From positions 41,620 through 105,619 of the forward strand of contig JAWBWS010000001.1 of the NCBI GenBank assembly GCA_038999725.1: a DNA stretch of 64,000 nucleotides. The letters run 5' to 3'. The notes under the pieces are model-generated. The model was not told where the DNA came from. It saw only the letters and a program-made list of their open reading frames with translations, and searched no databases. Shown here piece by piece: positions 25,407 through 53,873 of this stretch. The translations under genes were made by a program, and so were the position numbers. This DNA comes from Candidatus Aenigmatarchaeota archaeon (GTDB lineage: Archaea > Aenigmatarchaeota > Aenigmatarchaeia > CG10238-14 > SCSR01). How positions within the stretch are numbered: the stretch's first letter is position 1; each line of letters begins with the position of its first letter.

Positions 25407-25518
25407 TAGCCCCGGGCAGATTCGAACTGCCGTGTTCAGGTTTCTTTCTTCATCTTTTATCCGAGCTTTAGACTTTAAGTCCAAAGCCTGACATCCTTGA
25501 CCGCTAGATGACGGGGCT
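25407..25518 (-). tRNA. tRNA-Gln(TTG) with 39-nt intron at 37/38 (25442-25480)
   Basis: Cloverleaf AGCCCCG/CGGGGCT, GTTCGAATC T-loop, strict BHB (CTTT/AAAG helix; GGA and AAA bulges); no encoded CCA. Confidence 0.93.
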
Positions 25519-25554: not shown

Positions 25555-25785
25555 CTATTTATCCATTCCCACGACTTTAATCCCCTTTGTTGTCACCACA
25601 TAACTGCTTGAACCAAGGGGTGAAACTTTAGCTAAATAGCCCTTCTCTTCCAGGGATTTAAGTACATTCTCTAAAACAACAAGATCAGCTTTACCTTCAA
25701 CCAACTTGAAAAGCTCCTCCTTGCTCATCACAAGCTTTTTAGCAATTTCCTCAAGAATTTCTTTTTCTATTCCATCAACTTCCAT
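25555..25785 (-). CDS. Small winged-helix protein
   Basis: LENVLKSLEEKGYL...YVVTTKG pattern. Confidence 0.65.
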   Translation of the reverse strand: MEVDGIEKEILEEIAKKLVMSKEELFKLVEGKADLVVLENVLKSLEEKGYLAKVSPLGSSSYVVTTKGIKVVGMDK

Positions 25786-35007: not shown

Positions 35008-35067
35008 TCTCTTCCCCTTAAAAAATCTACAAATATAATATTAGTCGTGTAAAGAAATATAGATTAG

Positions 35068-35151
35068 GCCCCAGTAGCTCAGCCTGGAAGAGCAACTACC
35101 TCGTAAAGTCGAAAAAGTAGTGGGTCGAGGGTTCAAATCCCTCCTGGGGCT
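35068..35151 (+). tRNA. tRNA-Thr(CGT) with 10-nt intron at 37/38 (35106-35115)
   Basis: GCCCCAG/CTGGGGC acceptor; ACTAC/GTAGT anticodon stem around a 17-nt loop. Confidence 0.88.
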
Positions 35152-35225
35152 TTATTTAATCCAAATCATTAAACCTGCACTAGCAAATAGAATGAATTAA
35201 AGGTTTTATAAGTTAATTCAATCTT

Positions 35226-36568: not shown

Positions 36569-36685
36569 GCGCTGGTAGTCCAGTCGAGAATGACTCTGGA
36601 TTGGTCTAAGACGTCGATTTAAGCGGAACCCTGCCAACCAGAGGACAGAGCGGCGGAGACCCGGGTTCAAATCCCGGCCAGCGCA
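36569..36685 (+). tRNA. tRNA-Gly(GCC) with three introns (36586-36601 in D-loop; 36617-36628 at 29/30; 36637-36650 at 37/38)
   Basis: Removing 16+12+14 nt leaves a 75-nt canonical cloverleaf; each junction forms a BHB-like motif. Confidence 0.85.
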
Positions 36686-37368: not shown

Positions 37369-37486
37369 GCAGGGGTAGCCAAGCGGTTAAAGGCGGCAGG
37401 CTCAAGTTTGGTTGAGCTTTGATCTGAGATGAAAGAAGGAACCTGCTGGCTTAGTGCCTTCGTGGGTTCGAATCCCACCCCCTGCA
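37369..37486 (+). tRNA. tRNA-Leu(CAA) with 34-nt intron at 37/38 (37407-37440)
   Basis: GCAGGGG/CCCCTGC acceptor; long variable arm; GCAGG/CCTGC anticodon stem; 84 nt mature. Confidence 0.92.
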
Positions 37487-39812: not shown

Positions 39813-40098
39813 GCAGGAGGTCCCTGGTCGGAGAGCTAGGCCCTCTCTACTGGCCTTGCCAGTGGCAAATGGTCTATATGGCCGACCAAAGCTCGAGGGC
39901 GGTGTAGCTCAGTGAACTATTCCAAGCTTGTCGACTGAGAAGTCTTGTCCCACAGGACCGACTTCCCATCAAACCCAGCCAGGCGAGGAATCGAGCAACT
40001 GTAAGATGGGTTGATCGGTGCTTGTGGCAAACAGGATGGAGAAGACGGCTTGGGTTAAATAGTTTGTTGAGTTACATCCACCGAGAGCGACCTCCTGC
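39813..40098 (+). ncRNA. Archaeal signal recognition particle (7S) RNA
   Basis: 10-bp terminal helix GCAGGAGGTC/GACCTCCTGC; helix 8 motif GCCAGG-CGA-GGAA-TCG-AGCA; GC-rich island of about 286 nt. Confidence 0.92.
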
Positions 40099-42929: not shown

Positions 42930-43011
42930 GGGTCCGTGGTCTAACGGTAGGACGCCAAGAAAGCGGAACCCTCACACGGTGGAGAATTGGGTTCAACTCC
43001 CAACGGACCCA
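42930..43011 (+). tRNA. tRNA-Val(CAC) with 11-nt intron at 29/30 (42958-42968)
   Basis: GGGTCCG/CGGACCC acceptor; CCACC/GGTGG stem restored on intron removal; 71 nt mature. Confidence 0.88.
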
Positions 43012-43043: not shown

Positions 43044-43817
43044 ATGTTTGAAATCCTGAAAGAGTTTTTTCATTTCATGTTCCTACCCCAACCAGAATAC
43101 ACTTTTTTGAATACTCTTGTTTATTCAATTGGCTTTGTTATTGCGTCCTATCTTTTCTTCCTATTTTTAAGAAGAATGAAAATTAAAATAGATAAAAAGT
43201 TTGCGATTTCTATCTTTCCCTTCTTGATTCTTGGTAGCAGCTTAAGGGTTTTTGTGGATGATAAAATTTTTGAAAGCATTTTTCTTGTAACTCCATTGAT
43301 CTACCTAACAATTGGCTTCATTTTCACTCTTGTTTTATTATTTTCAATTTTCTTGGAAAGAAAATGTAAAATACCCTACTTTAAAATAGTTTTTTGTACA
43401 GGAATTTTATTATCTCTACCATTTCTCCTAATTCTTTTGATTAAAGCCGTAAATCTCCCTGCTTTCCTTCTTGTATTGCTTTTTCTCTCGCCTTGGCTTA
43501 TCTTGCTAAAAATTATAAAATGGAAAAATGAAAATAAAATTACATTTCTTGCCCAAATTTTTGACGCAACTGTTACCTTTGTTGGCATAACTTTTTTCGG
43601 TTATAAAGAAATGCATGTCCTGCCAAAAATTTTAATTCAATCATTTGGCCCCCTCTCTTTCATATTTTTGAAAGCTCTTGTGATTTTTTCTATTCTAGCT
43701 TTGCTTGAAAAGGTAAAGGGAAAGAAAGAGATCAAAAGCTTCATCAAGCTGATGATAAGTATTCTTGGTGCTTCAACCGGGATTAGAGATTTTTTAAGGA
43801 TTTTACTCTTAGTTTAA
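43044..43817 (+). CDS. DUF63-family polytopic membrane protein
   Basis: YTFLNTLVY; GSSLRVFVD; QIFDATVTF; GIRDFLR. Confidence 0.8.
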   Translation: MFEILKEFFHFMFLPQPEYTFLNTLVYSIGFVIASYLFFLFLRRMKIKIDKKFAISIFPFLILGSSLRVFVDDKIFESIFLVTPLIYLTIGFIFTLVLLFSIFLERKCKIPYFKIVFCTGILLSLPFLLILLIKAVNLPAFLLVLLFLSPWLILLKIIKWKNENKITFLAQIFDATVTFVGITFFGYKEMHVLPKILIQSFGPLSFIFLKALVIFSILALLEKVKGKKEIKSFIKLMISILGASTGIRDFLRILLLV

Positions 43818-44917
43818 TATTGAGAAATCGTTAGAGTGACATCTTCAAGTGAATAGGATCCTCCCTTTTCTGTGGAAAATGAAATTGTGTTTATGCCGGC
43901 TTTAAGCTCAACTTCCTCCCCAAACCTTTTAACAAGGTAGTATGGTGGCACTTCATTGTAAATTATCTTATCATTTATTTTGATGATTAGATTTGTTGAT
44001 TTTGGTGGTGAAATTATTTCATGTGTCTTTGTGAATAGAGAAATTTTCCCTTCTTTGAAATTTTTAACCTCAAAATCTTCGAGAGAAAAATTAAATTCTC
44101 TGAAAATTGTTCCATTGTATTCTACCATGAATTTAACTAAAGGTATTTTGTAAAAAGAGGTTGACCAAAATACAAAACCTGGTGAACCTGCCCTCAAAAC
44201 TATTGAATTAGACTTTTTGATTAAATCTTTTGGAATTTCTACAATCACTTCACCAACTCCAACTTTTTTGTCAAAAATTTTGTTGTTATTAAACTCAACT
44301 ATCAAACTCCCTAAAGAATTTGTTTGGTCGATTACCATTTGCAAGTAAGCATTTAAAATTAAAGGCAACTTCTCTTCAGGAACTATTACTGCAAAACTTG
44401 AATAAAACTCTGAAAAGTAGCCTTTTTCCACTTTGAGATTTTCCACTTCCCTTATAACTTCCTCACCAACGATATAGCCAACATTAAAATCATCAAAAGA
44501 GAATGAAATTTTCTTTTCTTCTGTTTTCATCGAAACATTCACTGAGATTGGAATTACTTTTTTAAAACCAAGCGTTTCAACATAAATTTCTCCCCAATGT
44601 ACACCGTAAGATGCCCAGAATGGGACATTTACAAAAACTCTAACCTTTTCCTCTTTTTCCACGTTAAGTCTATCTCTCTCAAAACTTATCCAATTTGCAA
44701 TTTCTCCAGAACTTCTTAAAGTCACATTAGAAGCTGTGCCATTCATGAAGATGTAAAAAGAGGAAGAAGACCCTCTCTCTATGGTTAAATACTTTGACTC
44801 TGGCATGACTGTTATTTGAGTTGAGGCCTGTGAACTCCAAACAATAACCAAAATACCTATCAATATCAAACCTGCCATGAGAACAAACGCAAATTCATCA
44901 ATTTGAGCTTTCATCAA
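43814..44917 (-). CDS. Class III signal-peptide (type IV pilin-like) surface protein
   Basis: MMKAQIDEF followed by a hydrophobic stretch. Confidence 0.6.
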   Translation of the reverse strand: MMKAQIDEFAFVLMAGLILIGILVIVWSSQASTQITVMPESKYLTIERGSSSSFYIFMNGTASNVTLRSSGEIANWISFERDRLNVEKEEKVRVFVNVPFWASYGVHWGEIYVETLGFKKVIPISVNVSMKTEEKKISFSFDDFNVGYIVGEEVIREVENLKVEKGYFSEFYSSFAVIVPEEKLPLILNAYLQMVIDQTNSLGSLIVEFNNNKIFDKKVGVGEVIVEIPKDLIKKSNSIVLRAGSPGFVFWSTSFYKIPLVKFMVEYNGTIFREFNFSLEDFEVKNFKEGKISLFTKTHEIISPPKSTNLIIKINDKIIYNEVPPYYLVKRFGEEVELKAGINTISFSTEKGGSYSLEDVTLTISQY

Positions 44918-44955: not shown

Positions 44956-45153
44956 TTATTTTAACTTCTCTTCCCTCTTTTTTATAGAAGTTATATAGCC
45001 TGCAATTATATTCCTTATCCTTTTTGAGTTTATGTCAATAAGTTGACCAACAATTTTCTTGTTTGTCTCAAAATCTGTAGAAAATTTATCTCCATTTTTT
45101 TCAAGTAAATATCTTGCCACTCTCTTGACAAAAGAAGTTTTAATTCTTCCCAT
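44956..45153 (-). CDS. rps17e: 30S ribosomal protein S17e
   Basis: MGRIKT...DFETNKK...RNIIAGYIT. Confidence 0.97.
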   Translation of the reverse strand: MGRIKTSFVKRVARYLLEKNGDKFSTDFETNKKIVGQLIDINSKRIRNIIAGYITSIKKREEKLK

Positions 45154-45168
45154 CGAATCACTGAATCT

Positions 45169-45735
45169 CTATGGAGTAAGGCGCTTAATTTCGTAATAAG
45201 TGCAATCATTCTCTCTGTCTACAACCGCCCACACGAAAGTCGCCCTTATATTATGTGCAAGTCTCACTGCCCTCGACATTTCTGGTAAAGAAAAGGCTGC
45301 TTCTTCTGGAACAGCATGAACTACAAATTTTGTGTGTTCATGTGGGGCTTTTGGTCCTCTTACAAGCTTTACTCCTCTTTCGTAAACTCTGAAATGGGCA
45401 CCAAATTTAAAACCAGTTTTCACCAGATAGCCTCTCTCCCTCAAGTCGCGATAAACTACAAATTGAGGATGAAATTGGTTTACTATTTTTGTTGCAATTT
45501 CTAAAAACTCCTTCAAGTCTACATATCTCCTCTTTTCTCCCTCTTTTAAAAAAACTTTCATTCTCCCTTTCTCTAAAAGATAGGCTGCCTCCACGAGCTC
45601 CAATTCAAGCCTACTGGGATTTTCTTCAGGAACTGGTTTACCAAAACCAGAATCATCATAAAGTCTAACAGCATCCTTATCCCAAATTATTACTCTGTTT
45701 TCCACTAATTCTCCTTCCCAAATTTTCTCTGCCAT
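45169..45735 (-). CDS. endA: tRNA-intron (splicing) endonuclease, single-unit type
   Basis: LELVEAAYL; YRDLRERGY; KTGFKFGAHFRVY; RLAHNIR. Confidence 0.93.
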   Translation of the reverse strand: MAEKIWEGELVENRVIIWDKDAVRLYDDSGFGKPVPEENPSRLELELVEAAYLLEKGRMKVFLKEGEKRRYVDLKEFLEIATKIVNQFHPQFVVYRDLRERGYLVKTGFKFGAHFRVYERGVKLVRGPKAPHEHTKFVVHAVPEEAAFSLPEMSRAVRLAHNIRATFVWAVVDRENDCTYYEIKRLTP

Positions 45736-45780: not shown

Positions 45781-46293
45781 CTACACCCAAACTTTTTTAC
45801 GACAACTTTGGCAAAGCTCTTTATTTTTCCTGTCCACATCACCAATAGTGTTTGAAAAACTCATCACACATGTTGAAATTGAGCAATGACCTAAACCAAG
45901 CATATGACCAACCTCATGAATTGCTTCTTTGACTGCTCTTTCTATCAGAAGGTTTTTATCTGGTTTTTGTCTATAGAAAGTTGGATCAAGTCTATGGATT
46001 GAAACAACACCATAATTTCCATGATAATAAGCTTGACCAAAAACAAAATTCAAATTTTCGGCATAAAGATCTTTATCTGTAACCCCTAAAGTTTTATTTT
46101 GAAATTTTTCCGATAAAAATTTAAGTACAAGAGGAGCGGGATATTGGTGCCGAATCTCATTGTAAATTTCCTTCGGAATCTCTATTGGTCTTGTTGTCTC
46201 TGTACTCAACTCAAATTTTTCTCTTAATTCCGAAGCTATCGCCGTAAGTACCTCCTCGGGAATTTTTCCAAGCTGAACAATTGTGATTTTCAT
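45781..46293 (-). CDS. amzA: Archaemetzincin Zn-metalloprotease
   Basis: NFVFGQA; HEVGHMLGLGHC...CVMSFS. Confidence 0.93.
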   Translation of the reverse strand: MKITIVQLGKIPEEVLTAIASELREKFELSTETTRPIEIPKEIYNEIRHQYPAPLVLKFLSEKFQNKTLGVTDKDLYAENLNFVFGQAYYHGNYGVVSIHRLDPTFYRQKPDKNLLIERAVKEAIHEVGHMLGLGHCSISTCVMSFSNTIGDVDRKNKELCQSCRKKVWV

Positions 46294-51565: not shown

Positions 51566-51615
51566 AAAAAGAAAATTATTTTTAAATTAGTTAAGCTTAA
51601 ATAAAATTTTAGGAA

Positions 51616-51709
51616 GCCTCGTTAGCTCAGTTGGTAGAGCATCCGAAGAGTTAAAACTCTGGTGAACCTTGTAAGCGGAGGGTCGTGGGTTCAAATCCCA
51701 CACGAGGCT
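51616..51709 (+). tRNA. tRNA-Thr(TGT) with 21-nt intron at 30/31 (51646-51666)
   Basis: GCCTCGT/ACGAGGC acceptor; strict BHB with CATC/GGTG helix and inner AGAG/CTCT stem; 73 nt mature. Confidence 0.92.
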
Positions 51710-51721
51710 TTCAAGCAAATT

Positions 51722-52901: not shown

Positions 52902-53647
52902 TTACCTACCAAAATTCCTTTGTATAGAGTTATACCATTTAATTGCCTTAATCAAATCTTTTTTGGAGAAATCTGGCCAAAGCTTTTTGGTAACATAAAT
53001 TTCTGCATAAGATGCTTGTATCAACATGAAGTTTGAAAGTCTGGAAAAGCCCCCAGTCCTTATCACAAGGTCAAGAGGAGCAGGAACAAGCAAATTAGCT
53101 TCTATGTCTTTTTCTGTTACTTCTACTTTACCAATTTTTATCGCTTTTTCTACAATTTTTTTTATCGCTTGAGTTAATTCAAATTTGCTTCCGTAGGCTA
53201 TCATTATGTTTAAAACCCTTTCCTGATATTTTGCGGTATTTTGCATTATTTTCCCCATAAGCTTAACGAGCTTTGGTGGTAATTTTTCAAGGTCGCCAAT
53301 AAACCTAACTTTGACTTGATATTTATCCAAAAATCCCCCTTCCTTCTTTTTCCCCCTCTCCCACTTTTTCAAATAATTGTAGAAAATCTTGAAAATTTCT
53401 TCCAATTCCCTTTTTGGTCTATTCAAGTTTTCTGTAGATAAAACATATGCCGAAACTTGTGGTATTCCTAACTCTAGACACCAGTTCAAAAACTCTTCAA
53501 ACTTTTTTGTGCTTGTGAGAGTTTATCCTCTCAACAATTTGCACCATATTTATGTCCTTCCCAAGGTTGTAAACCATGAAGTCTTGCCCATCTTCTGTTT
53601 CCATCCAAAATTATTCCTAGATGATTTGGGAGTGTCAACTCGTTCAT
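52902..53647 (-). CDS. uppS: cis-prenyltransferase UppS, split by a 32-nt BHB intron (exons 53647-53539 and 53506-52902; 237 aa spliced)
   Basis: Exon 1 carries PNHLGIILDGNRRWA...GH with GGAGGTG SD; exon 2 carries LSTEN, LDLVIRTGG, RLSNF, RNFGR; exon lengths sum to 714 nt. Confidence 0.92.
53507..53538 (-). other. Predicted archaeal BHB intron in uppS pre-mRNA
   Basis: GTGC-AA|A-[TTGT T GAGAG GATAAA CTCTC ACAA]-GCAC-AA|A; contains an in-frame TGA; excision restores GGT GCA AAA AAG TTT. Confidence 0.85.
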
Positions 53648-53716
53648 CGATACACCTCCATTTTTTCATAAATTTTAAATAATATAAATATTTTTAAAAA
53701 CAAAAAAGTTTGAAAT

Positions 53717-53820
53717 GGGGTCGTCGTCTAACCAGGTAGGACAGCAGGCTCCAGGTTCAATGGAGCTCTGACAAAAGATGAAGAAACCTGTATGTGAGGG
53801 TTCAAATCCCTCCGACCCCA
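53717..53820 (+). tRNA. tRNA-Trp(CCA) with 31-nt intron at 37/38 (53755-53785)
   Basis: GGGGTCG/CGACCCC acceptor; GCAGG/CCTGT stem; 73 nt mature. Confidence 0.92.
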
Positions 53821-53873
53821 TCTACTTTCATTTTTCAATTATTGATAAAAATTCTAATTGATAAACACTATTT

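Follow-up and report, generated by a model that had tools for sequence, protein, structure and literature searches.

A Predicted Splicing Endonuclease of Candidatus Aenigmatarchaeota with Alanine at the Catalytic Lysine Position and Its Lys-Less Relatives in DPANN Archaea

The gene for an RNA-splicing endonuclease, endA, was found in a stretch of 64,000 nucleotides of the Candidatus Aenigmatarchaeota contig JAWBWS010000001.1 (assembly GCA_038999725.1), herein referred to as the window, which has a G+C content of 34%. The gene occupies positions 45169..45735 of the reverse strand, on which all the features of this gene and its two neighbors given below are also located, and comprises 188 codons and a stop codon. 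The alpha-type subunit that it encodes was recognized by Pfam, TIGR00324, HMMER alignments, and AlphaFold2. Both domains of archaeal EndA (tRNA-intron lyase, EC 4.6.1.16) were found above their curated cut-offs: an N-terminal domain in residues 7-71 (45523..45717; Pfam PF02778 tRNA_int_endo_N, E 6.6e-18) and a C-terminal catalytic domain in residues 88-180 (45196..45474; Pfam PF01974 tRNA_int_endo, E 9.4e-27). Against the TIGR00324 endA profile, the 188-aa protein scores 116.9 bits (cut-off 59.6). The upstream neighbor encodes an archaemetzincin (Peptidase_M54; 45781..46293; Pfam E 1.4e-31) and serves as a synteny marker, and the downstream neighbor encodes ribosomal protein S17e (44956..45153; Pfam PF00833, E 4.7e-17).

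The nearest database relatives of the window EndA are annotated as tRNA-intron lyases, share 71-91% identity with it, and belong to metagenome-assembled genomes (MAGs) of Candidatus Aenigmatarchaeota; the top GTDB matches are hot-spring MAGs (90%). The AlphaFold2 monomer model has a pLDDT of 90.3 and a pTM of 0.87. In a Foldseek search with this model against the PDB, approximately 40 top matches were all chains of splicing endonucleases, as expected for an EndA fold. The best of them was the alpha4 enzyme of Methanocaldococcus jannaschii (1a79_A; TM 0.79/0.86, E 4e-18, 35% identity).

Seven tRNA genes were detected in the window, each of them intron-bearing; their bulge-helix-bulge (BHB) motifs were graded as strict or relaxed by simple heuristic scoring. 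Strict motifs were found for tRNA-Gln, with a canonical intron, and for tRNA-Thr(TGT), with an intron at 30/31. Relaxed motifs were found for tRNA-Thr(CGT) (canonical intron of 10 nt), tRNA-Val (intron of 11 nt at 29/30), and tRNA-Trp (canonical intron). For the canonical intron of tRNA-Leu, detected by ARAGORN, no good motif was found, and tRNA-Gly probably contains two introns. Additionally, an intron of 32 nt, the motif of which is of the HBh' type, interrupts uppS. The relaxed and non-canonically placed introns reported by the first-pass annotation are thus present among the tRNA genes of the window. With seven intron-bearing tRNA genes out of seven and a split uppS, an endonuclease is needed by this organism.

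The active-site residues were located by HMMER alignments of the window EndA to five solved enzymes: M. jannaschii 1a79, M. kandleri 5x89, ARMAN-2 4fz2, A. pernix 3p1z_B, and N. equitans 3iey_A. For residue equivalences, chain positions counted in the printed alignments were matched to the residue numbers given in the structural studies (PMC5829648, PMC3488258). The catalytic Tyr, presumed to be the general base, is Tyr118 (TAC, 45382..45384), aligned to MKA Y295 and ARMAN-2 Y236. The catalytic His, presumed to be the general acid, is His134 (CAC, 45334..45336), aligned to MKA H303 and ARMAN-2 H251. Both of the ARMAN-2 counterparts have been tested experimentally (PMC3488258).

The third member of the triad is the Lys of the A-H-x-x-[RK]-K motif. 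In each of the five pairwise alignments, the 'AHNIRA' of the window EndA faces 'AHSVRK' or 'AHSTRK', so that Ala165 (GCG, 45241..45243) occupies the position of the catalytic Lys (MJ K156, AFU K287, ARMAN-2 K282, MKA K334). The first-pass annotation had read this position by eye as a missing Lys with a GCG codon, and the five alignments agree with it; the segment that it marked, 45241-45384, spans exactly Tyr118 to Ala165. The proper alignment that it called for shows the Lys to be absent rather than shifted, with no Lys within three residues of position 165 on either side (N-I-R-A-T-F-V). Among the EndA features tested, this Lys is the only one absent. According to reviews, Tyr, His, and Lys are conserved across all four types of EndA (PMC6379350), and the triad is treated as invariant from the archaeal enzymes to human TSEN2 and TSEN34. 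The K282A substitution in ARMAN-2 EndA abolishes intron cleavage (PMC3488258), a result that makes activity of a Lys-less enzyme unexpected.

The remaining apparatus is preserved. The bulge-nucleotide clamp Arg158 (45262..45264) aligns to MKA R327 and ARMAN-2 R275 and is conserved in 100% of sequences in all classes. A probable second clamp is Arg185 (45181..45183), the equivalence of which to AFU R302 comes from alignment only; Arg was found at this position in 91-98% of sequences per DPANN class and Trp in the remainder, and Arg/Arg and Arg/Trp are the two known forms of the clamp pair. The acidic L10 loop, which serves tetramer assembly, corresponds to D173-R-E-N-D177 (45205..45219) and aligns to the 'DADGD' of M. 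jannaschii. Thus, the catalytic residues and an acidic L10 (D173-E175-D177 versus D-A-D-G-D) are located on one polypeptide, as in alpha4 enzymes. Across an alignment of 149 sequences reaching down to 34% identity, Tyr118, His134, Arg158, and Asp173 are invariant, and Arg185 and Glu175 are conserved in at least 90% of sequences. The first three of these residues are also kept in every sequence class.

The loop between the catalytic Tyr and His (residues 119-133, ERGVKLVRGPKAPHE; 45337..45381) is longer than that of M. jannaschii. The Tyr-to-His spacing is 16 residues versus 10, and a six-residue gap was found in the alignment, as the first-pass annotation had described together with the basic character of the insert. 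The placement of this gap assigns the six extra residues to VRGPKA (125-130; 45346..45363), including Lys129 (45349..45351); the basic residues of the whole loop are K123, R126, and K129. The loop can be aligned without gaps to residues 90-98 of the N. equitans alpha subunit: YERGVKLVRGPKAPHEH and YDIGVIPKKGKRSEREH have the same length, with basic residues at matching places. This Lys/Arg-rich insert between Tyr and His, superposable on N. equitans 90-98, places the window EndA in the NEQ-specific, or L3, class (defined in PMC3488258 and PMC5829648). The confidence of the model is lowest in this loop (pLDDT ~74).

The insert is therefore an already described DPANN feature and comprises 6-7 residues in the group of DPANN EndAs to which the window EndA belongs. 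Hirata et al. (2012) defined the 'specific loop' as NEQ 90-98 and ARMAN-2 240-247, noted that it adjoins the triad and carries the catalytic His, and suggested a role for its basic residues in broad specificity (PMC3488258). Kaneta et al. (2018) renamed this loop L3, found L3-bearing alpha4-type EndAs in several DPANN lineages, and associated the presence of L3 with larger numbers of disrupted tRNA genes (PMC5829648). By correlation and by the enzymology of N. equitans, L3 has been linked to the cleavage of relaxed or misplaced BHB motifs. Judging from the tRNA genes of the window, the host is rich in disrupted tRNA genes, as are L3-bearing lineages; this observation fits the published link and is not a test of it.

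The first-pass annotation had likened the insert to the crenarchaeal and ARMAN loops (CSL and ASL), the Lys of which has been shown to matter. This likeness was not borne out, since these loops are located at a different site. Its general background was upheld: enzymes with a lineage-specific, Lys-carrying loop accept a broader range of substrates, and those of the plain alpha4 and alpha'2 types are limited to strict BHBs (PMC5829648, PMC3488258). An outcome that it had named as counting against its own reading, that the insert should be common in ordinary enzymes, was found for the DPANN enzymes (N. equitans and the library proteins P0172 and P0194). The basic Tyr-His insert was already known; the loss of Lys is, as far as we found, new.

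The loss of the Lys is not restricted to the analyzed genome. In total, 273 non-identical Lys-less relatives were found among all sequences pooled for the analysis, with Ala, Ser, Thr or, once, Ile at this position. These forms span Aenigmatarchaeota, Nanohaloarchaea, Iainarchaeum/Diapherotrites, and Micrarchaeota; the named genomes include the complete chromosome CP070804.1 (Aenigmatarchaeota) and Candidatus Nanosalina J07AB43 (Nanohaloarchaea). The Lys is retained in the relatives from Undinarchaeota and Hydrothermarchaeota. A library clustered at 50% identity contained 141 representative catalytic units with both Tyr and His, 129 of them having Lys and 12 having Ala, Thr, or Ser. The AHNIRA motif was found in 119 of the 120 closest homologs, and all of GCA, GCT, GCG, and GCC were found at codon 165 across the GTDB genomes. 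The dN/dS ratio against the five closest orthologs (L001-L005) is 0.04-0.08, with dS saturated. Three hot-spring metagenome runs contain the endA stretch at 97-99% of words. In three metatranscriptomes of the same study, sampled at 3-5%, no reads on endA, uppS, or the tRNA genes were found.

In a neighbor-joining tree built from the unmasked alignment, every Lys-less representative falls within one clade of 14. Masking of the Lys column and the loop lowers the bootstrap support to 0.02, and the tree then supports neither monophyly of the Lys-less forms nor a loss that preceded the insert. A literature search for Lys-less EndAs returned no report, within a searchable literature that is itself incomplete. 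Judged from these comparisons, the loss of Lys is real, ancient, and widespread and, as far as we found, undescribed.

Known enzymes resemble the window EndA in different respects. The M. jannaschii EndA (alpha4, PDB 1A79) is likewise a two-domain subunit of ~180 aa, in which the Tyr, the His, the first Arg clamp, 'YERG', and the acidic L10 all align; unlike the window EndA, with its Ala165 and spacing of 16, it has the Lys (AHSVRK) and the short spacing. This enzyme cuts only strict BHB motifs (PMC3488258). The alpha subunit of N. equitans (PDB 3IEY_A) shares the identical, gap-free Tyr-His loop length, and its host has disrupted tRNA genes that need broad specificity (PMC3488258, PMC5829648). 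However, it keeps the Lys (AHSTRKK), consists of 154 aa without the N-terminal domain, and functions together with a beta subunit that is a separate protein (PDB 3IEY_B, NEQ261); its alignment to the window EndA stops before L10.

The epsilon2 EndA of ARMAN-2 (Candidatus Micrarchaeum acidiphilum; 4FZ2, 9W2K) is likewise a DPANN enzyme with broad specificity, and its Tyr-His loop (240-247) is long at the corresponding site. In contrast to the window EndA, it is a three-unit fusion with the catalytic K282 present (PMC3488258, PMC12397907), and its broad specificity stems from another loop, the ASL with K161 (PMC3488258, PMC12397907). The crenarchaeal (alpha-beta)2 enzyme of A. pernix (3P1Z/3AJV) has a homologous alpha subunit (E 2.8e-21; 3p1z_B TM 0.77) and shares the principle of a lineage-specific loop that widens specificity. 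It differs in having the CSL in the N-terminal part of the subunit and all three triad residues, Lys included, and in its need for a separate beta subunit.

Taking these data together, we infer, at slightly better than even chances, that the window EndA is an active alpha4-type enzyme with a remodeled, Lys-less active site. It would be the working catalytic endonuclease of the organism and most likely a homotetramer as in M. jannaschii, because the assembly loop lies on the same polypeptide as the catalytic residues. Cleavage would proceed in an RNase-A-like manner, with Tyr118 activating the 2'-OH and His134 protonating the leaving group; in the EndA family, cleavage of BHB motifs yields 2',3'-cyclic phosphate and 5'-OH ends. 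The phosphate contact of the lost Lys may have been taken over by a re-packed pocket. Three substitutions co-occur with the loss of Lys in both Lys-less classes: Ser/Ala135 to Thr, Leu138 to Val or Ile, and Val163 to Ile or Leu; these positions would be part of the re-packed pocket.

The charge of the Lys would perhaps come from a neighboring basic group, with Arg120 of the Y-x-R-G motif (45376..45378) as a candidate chosen by its conservation and the loop Lys129 as a less likely one. A basic residue (Arg or Lys) at position 120 was found in 100% of the Lys-less forms, in 97% of the nearest Lys-keeping relatives, and in ~27% of other EndAs; Arg120-Gly121 is invariant in the Lys-less forms and is also present in M. 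jannaschii. Since the Lys-keeping enzymes share Arg120, this residue is at best permissive and not a specific replacement. As features specific to the Lys-less forms, Asn162 and Arg120/Gly121 were rejected, being common to the nearest Lys-keeping relatives. Alternatively, the Lys contact may have been dispensed with at some cost in rate.

Extended to the whole group, this interpretation is about as probable as its opposite. It states that in a large DPANN group, including Aenigmatarchaeota, Nanohaloarchaea, Iainarchaeum/Diapherotrites, and some Micrarchaeota, all BHB splicing of tRNA, rRNA, and mRNA may be performed by a Lys-less endonuclease with a rewired active site, for which Thr135, Val138, Ile163, and Arg120 or a loop Lys are the candidates. 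The Lys-less state would then be older than the independent beta-alpha split found in one lineage. If true, such DPANN-wide Lys-less splicing would be a natural counter-example to the model of the Tyr/His/Lys triad. Several hundred Lys-less sequences, strong purifying selection, and intron-rich hosts challenge the view of an invariant triad, the Lys-to-Ala change having abolished activity in the one DPANN enzyme tested, that of ARMAN-2. Such sequences would mean either that certain active sites can do without the Lys or that another residue can assume its role. Lys-less EndAs thus bear on the share of each triad member in catalysis.

A more specific form of such a move, which we regard as possible but doubtful, is that the catalytic residue has migrated: Lys129 or Arg126 of the loop would reach the scissile phosphate and replace the Lys, and the loop would also broaden specificity. 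In the 241 insert-bearing Lys-less sequences, G127 and K129 are conserved in 100% and P128 in 95%, which speaks for this explanation. However, the same loop is found alongside the canonical Lys in N. equitans, in which R97 is the basic residue at the equivalent of position 129, and in P0172 and P0194, which combine the insert and a basic residue at this position with the catalytic Lys; the conservation of the loop can thus be explained without any takeover. Moreover, 32 non-identical Lys-less relatives (31 with Thr and one with Ile) have no insert and the ordinary spacing of 10 residues; the Lys can thus be lost in the absence of the insert.

In most of these insert-less forms, the short loop contains one more Lys than in their Lys-keeping neighbors ('YPRGKKPG' versus 'YxRG[ED]KPG'), which hints weakly at a role for a loop Lys. 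Two others, P0193 ('YPRGQALEEAH') and P0243 ('YPRGSTIDTAH'), are Lys-less with neither the insert nor any loop Lys, and no single universal replacement Lys was found across all the Lys-less forms compared. For the counterpart loop of ARMAN-2, the study reports that no part in activity or specificity was shown (PMC3488258), and nowhere is the model less confident than in this loop. Therefore, the proposal in the first-pass annotation that the insert supplies a replacement Lys, for which the conserved Lys129 would be the candidate, is possible but not favored by the comparison, given the insert-less Lys-less forms and the coexistence of the loop with Lys.

According to another explanation, the window EndA is a structural or auxiliary partner in a heteromer, the canonical subunit with Tyr, His, and Lys being encoded elsewhere in the genome. 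[quoted passage not shown] The upstream gene of this tandem pair encodes a beta unit without the His, the insert, or Arg158 and with a strongly acidic L10. The downstream gene encodes an alpha unit with the His, the insert, and 'AHNIRAN', with a weakened L10 and the C-terminus 'FFKP'. Both units lack the Lys; thus, even at the locus of these heteromeric relatives, the only His-bearing unit is Lys-less. Structural units, whether N-terminal repeats or beta units, lose exactly the His, but in the window EndA His134, Tyr118, and both clamps are conserved.

Searches for a second endA gave the same picture. With phmmer and a family HMM against the six-frame translation of the 64-kb window, only the known gene was found; a weak match at 25555-25785 (E 0.01-0.03) was rejected as a second endA, being a 76-aa ORF without EndA motifs. 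Among the 46 Lys-less GTDB loci, no second copy was found in the 3-kb flanks of 45, the exception being L068 of the tandem-pair lineage. No assembly recurred among the best 80 of the 544 GTDB matches. The beta-like family is small (27 proteins), with none on the long contigs of the clade of the window, nor did any Lys-keeping EndA lie on a contig matching these in length, and a metagenome scan with this family gave no additions among the matches listed. Thus, the heteromer alternative raised by the first-pass annotation gained no support in the window or beside the gene in 46 genomes, save for one lineage. Judged from these sequences, a hidden canonical partner subunit is unlikely, and the heteromer as a whole is improbable to a much greater degree than the migration of the catalytic residue.

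It is less probable still that the window EndA is a degenerate or repurposed protein that binds BHB RNA with little or no cleavage, another nuclease removing the introns. The loss of detectable cleavage in the Lys-to-Ala mutant of ARMAN-2 EndA would agree with this explanation (PMC3488258). Against it, the remaining catalytic apparatus is under strong purifying selection, and introns are abundant rather than scarce in the window. We also know of no other enzyme class that cuts archaeal BHB introns. Finally, an error of sequencing or assembly, or a private mutation, is ruled out by the closest homologs with Ala, the four Ala codons, and the metagenome support.

The tandem pair itself suggests that a two-subunit enzyme arose once more, independently. 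It shares with the window the place downstream of Peptidase_M54 and a Lys-less alpha unit with the insert; in the sister lineage the gene has been duplicated and its roles split, whereas the window contains one undivided gene. In the library protein P0122, in which two units are fused, Ser was found at the Lys position in both units.

All seven tRNA genes found in the window contain introns, each 10-39 nt long. These genes include tRNA-Gln (25407-25518, minus strand), tRNA-Leu (37369-37486), and tRNA-Trp (53716-53822), together with those at 35067-35152, 36569-36685, 42930-43011, and 51615-51710. In two genes, the introns are located in the anticodon stem, at positions 29/30 for tRNA-Val and 30/31 for tRNA-Thr(TGT). 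The bulge-helix-bulge (BHB) motifs were graded by heuristic scoring, and relaxed forms were found at several introns. The gene at 36569-36685, for which no Rfam match was found at the gathering score, probably holds two introns. By eye, the long introns of tRNA-Gln, tRNA-Leu, and tRNA-Trp (n = 3) have a common motif at the 3' end, ...AGCTnnGA(n)4-6 AGATGAAGAA. This shared sequence suggests a common origin of the three introns; the motif may be a box C/D-like element, like that of the euryarchaeal tRNA-Trp intron.

An intron was also found in a gene of the undecaprenyl-diphosphate synthase family, uppS (52902-53647, minus strand; intron at about 53507-53538). Exon 1 ends with ...GHKYGA, and reading on into ...KKFEEFLNWCLELGI requires the removal of 32 nt with a GAGAG/CTCTC hairpin. 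The motif that fits this intron best is the relaxed form HBh', in which a central helix of 4 bp is accompanied by an inner helix and the outer helix is missing.

In the SRP RNA (39814-40097, plus strand), position 40011 was joined to 40076 in 39 reads of the metatranscriptome X10, with 64 nt skipped. No BHB was found at the ends of the skipped stretch, its loss would disrupt the long SRP helix, and about half of the junction reads are just 90-95% alike. These reads may represent a shorter RNA of a related strain or an artefact.

Alignment of the window EndA with the M. jannaschii enzyme and three EndAs of the sister Aenigmatarchaeota lineage with beta/alpha pairs revealed about four extra residues in the window protein, at the same insertion site as the specificity loops of Crenarchaeota (CSL) and ARMAN (ASL). 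The N-terminal stretch at this site is PVPEENPS (residues about 34-41; 45613-45636, minus strand), and the extra residues include no Lys.

Two-unit EndAs were found in relatives. In a small Aenigmatarchaeota lineage, a tandem pair of endA genes, for a beta-like (His-less, structural) and an alpha (His-bearing) unit, follows the archaemetzincin gene (Peptidase_M54), at the same locus as the single endA gene of the window. This pair is present in L068 (826-1873), L081 (3001-4064), L082 (1939-2990), L083, and L084, and both of its units lack the catalytic Lys. In this lineage, a splicing endonuclease of two subunits seems to have arisen independently. Another EndA, P0122, is a 360-aa fusion of two units, encoded on contigs of up to 46 kb; both units retain Tyr and His, and in each the position of the Lys is occupied by Ser (ANNIRSK in one, ALNIRSK in the other).

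Adjoining rpS17e in the window, a 367-aa ORF (43814-44917, minus strand) has a hydrophobic N-terminus and matched no Pfam family. Two EndA-bearing contigs, L025 (JADFIX010000162.1) and L075 (JAIVYC010000058.1), are filed under the bacterial MAG names Planctomycetota and Sulfurovum, respectively; most likely, these are contigs of DPANN or other archaea introduced by binning contamination.
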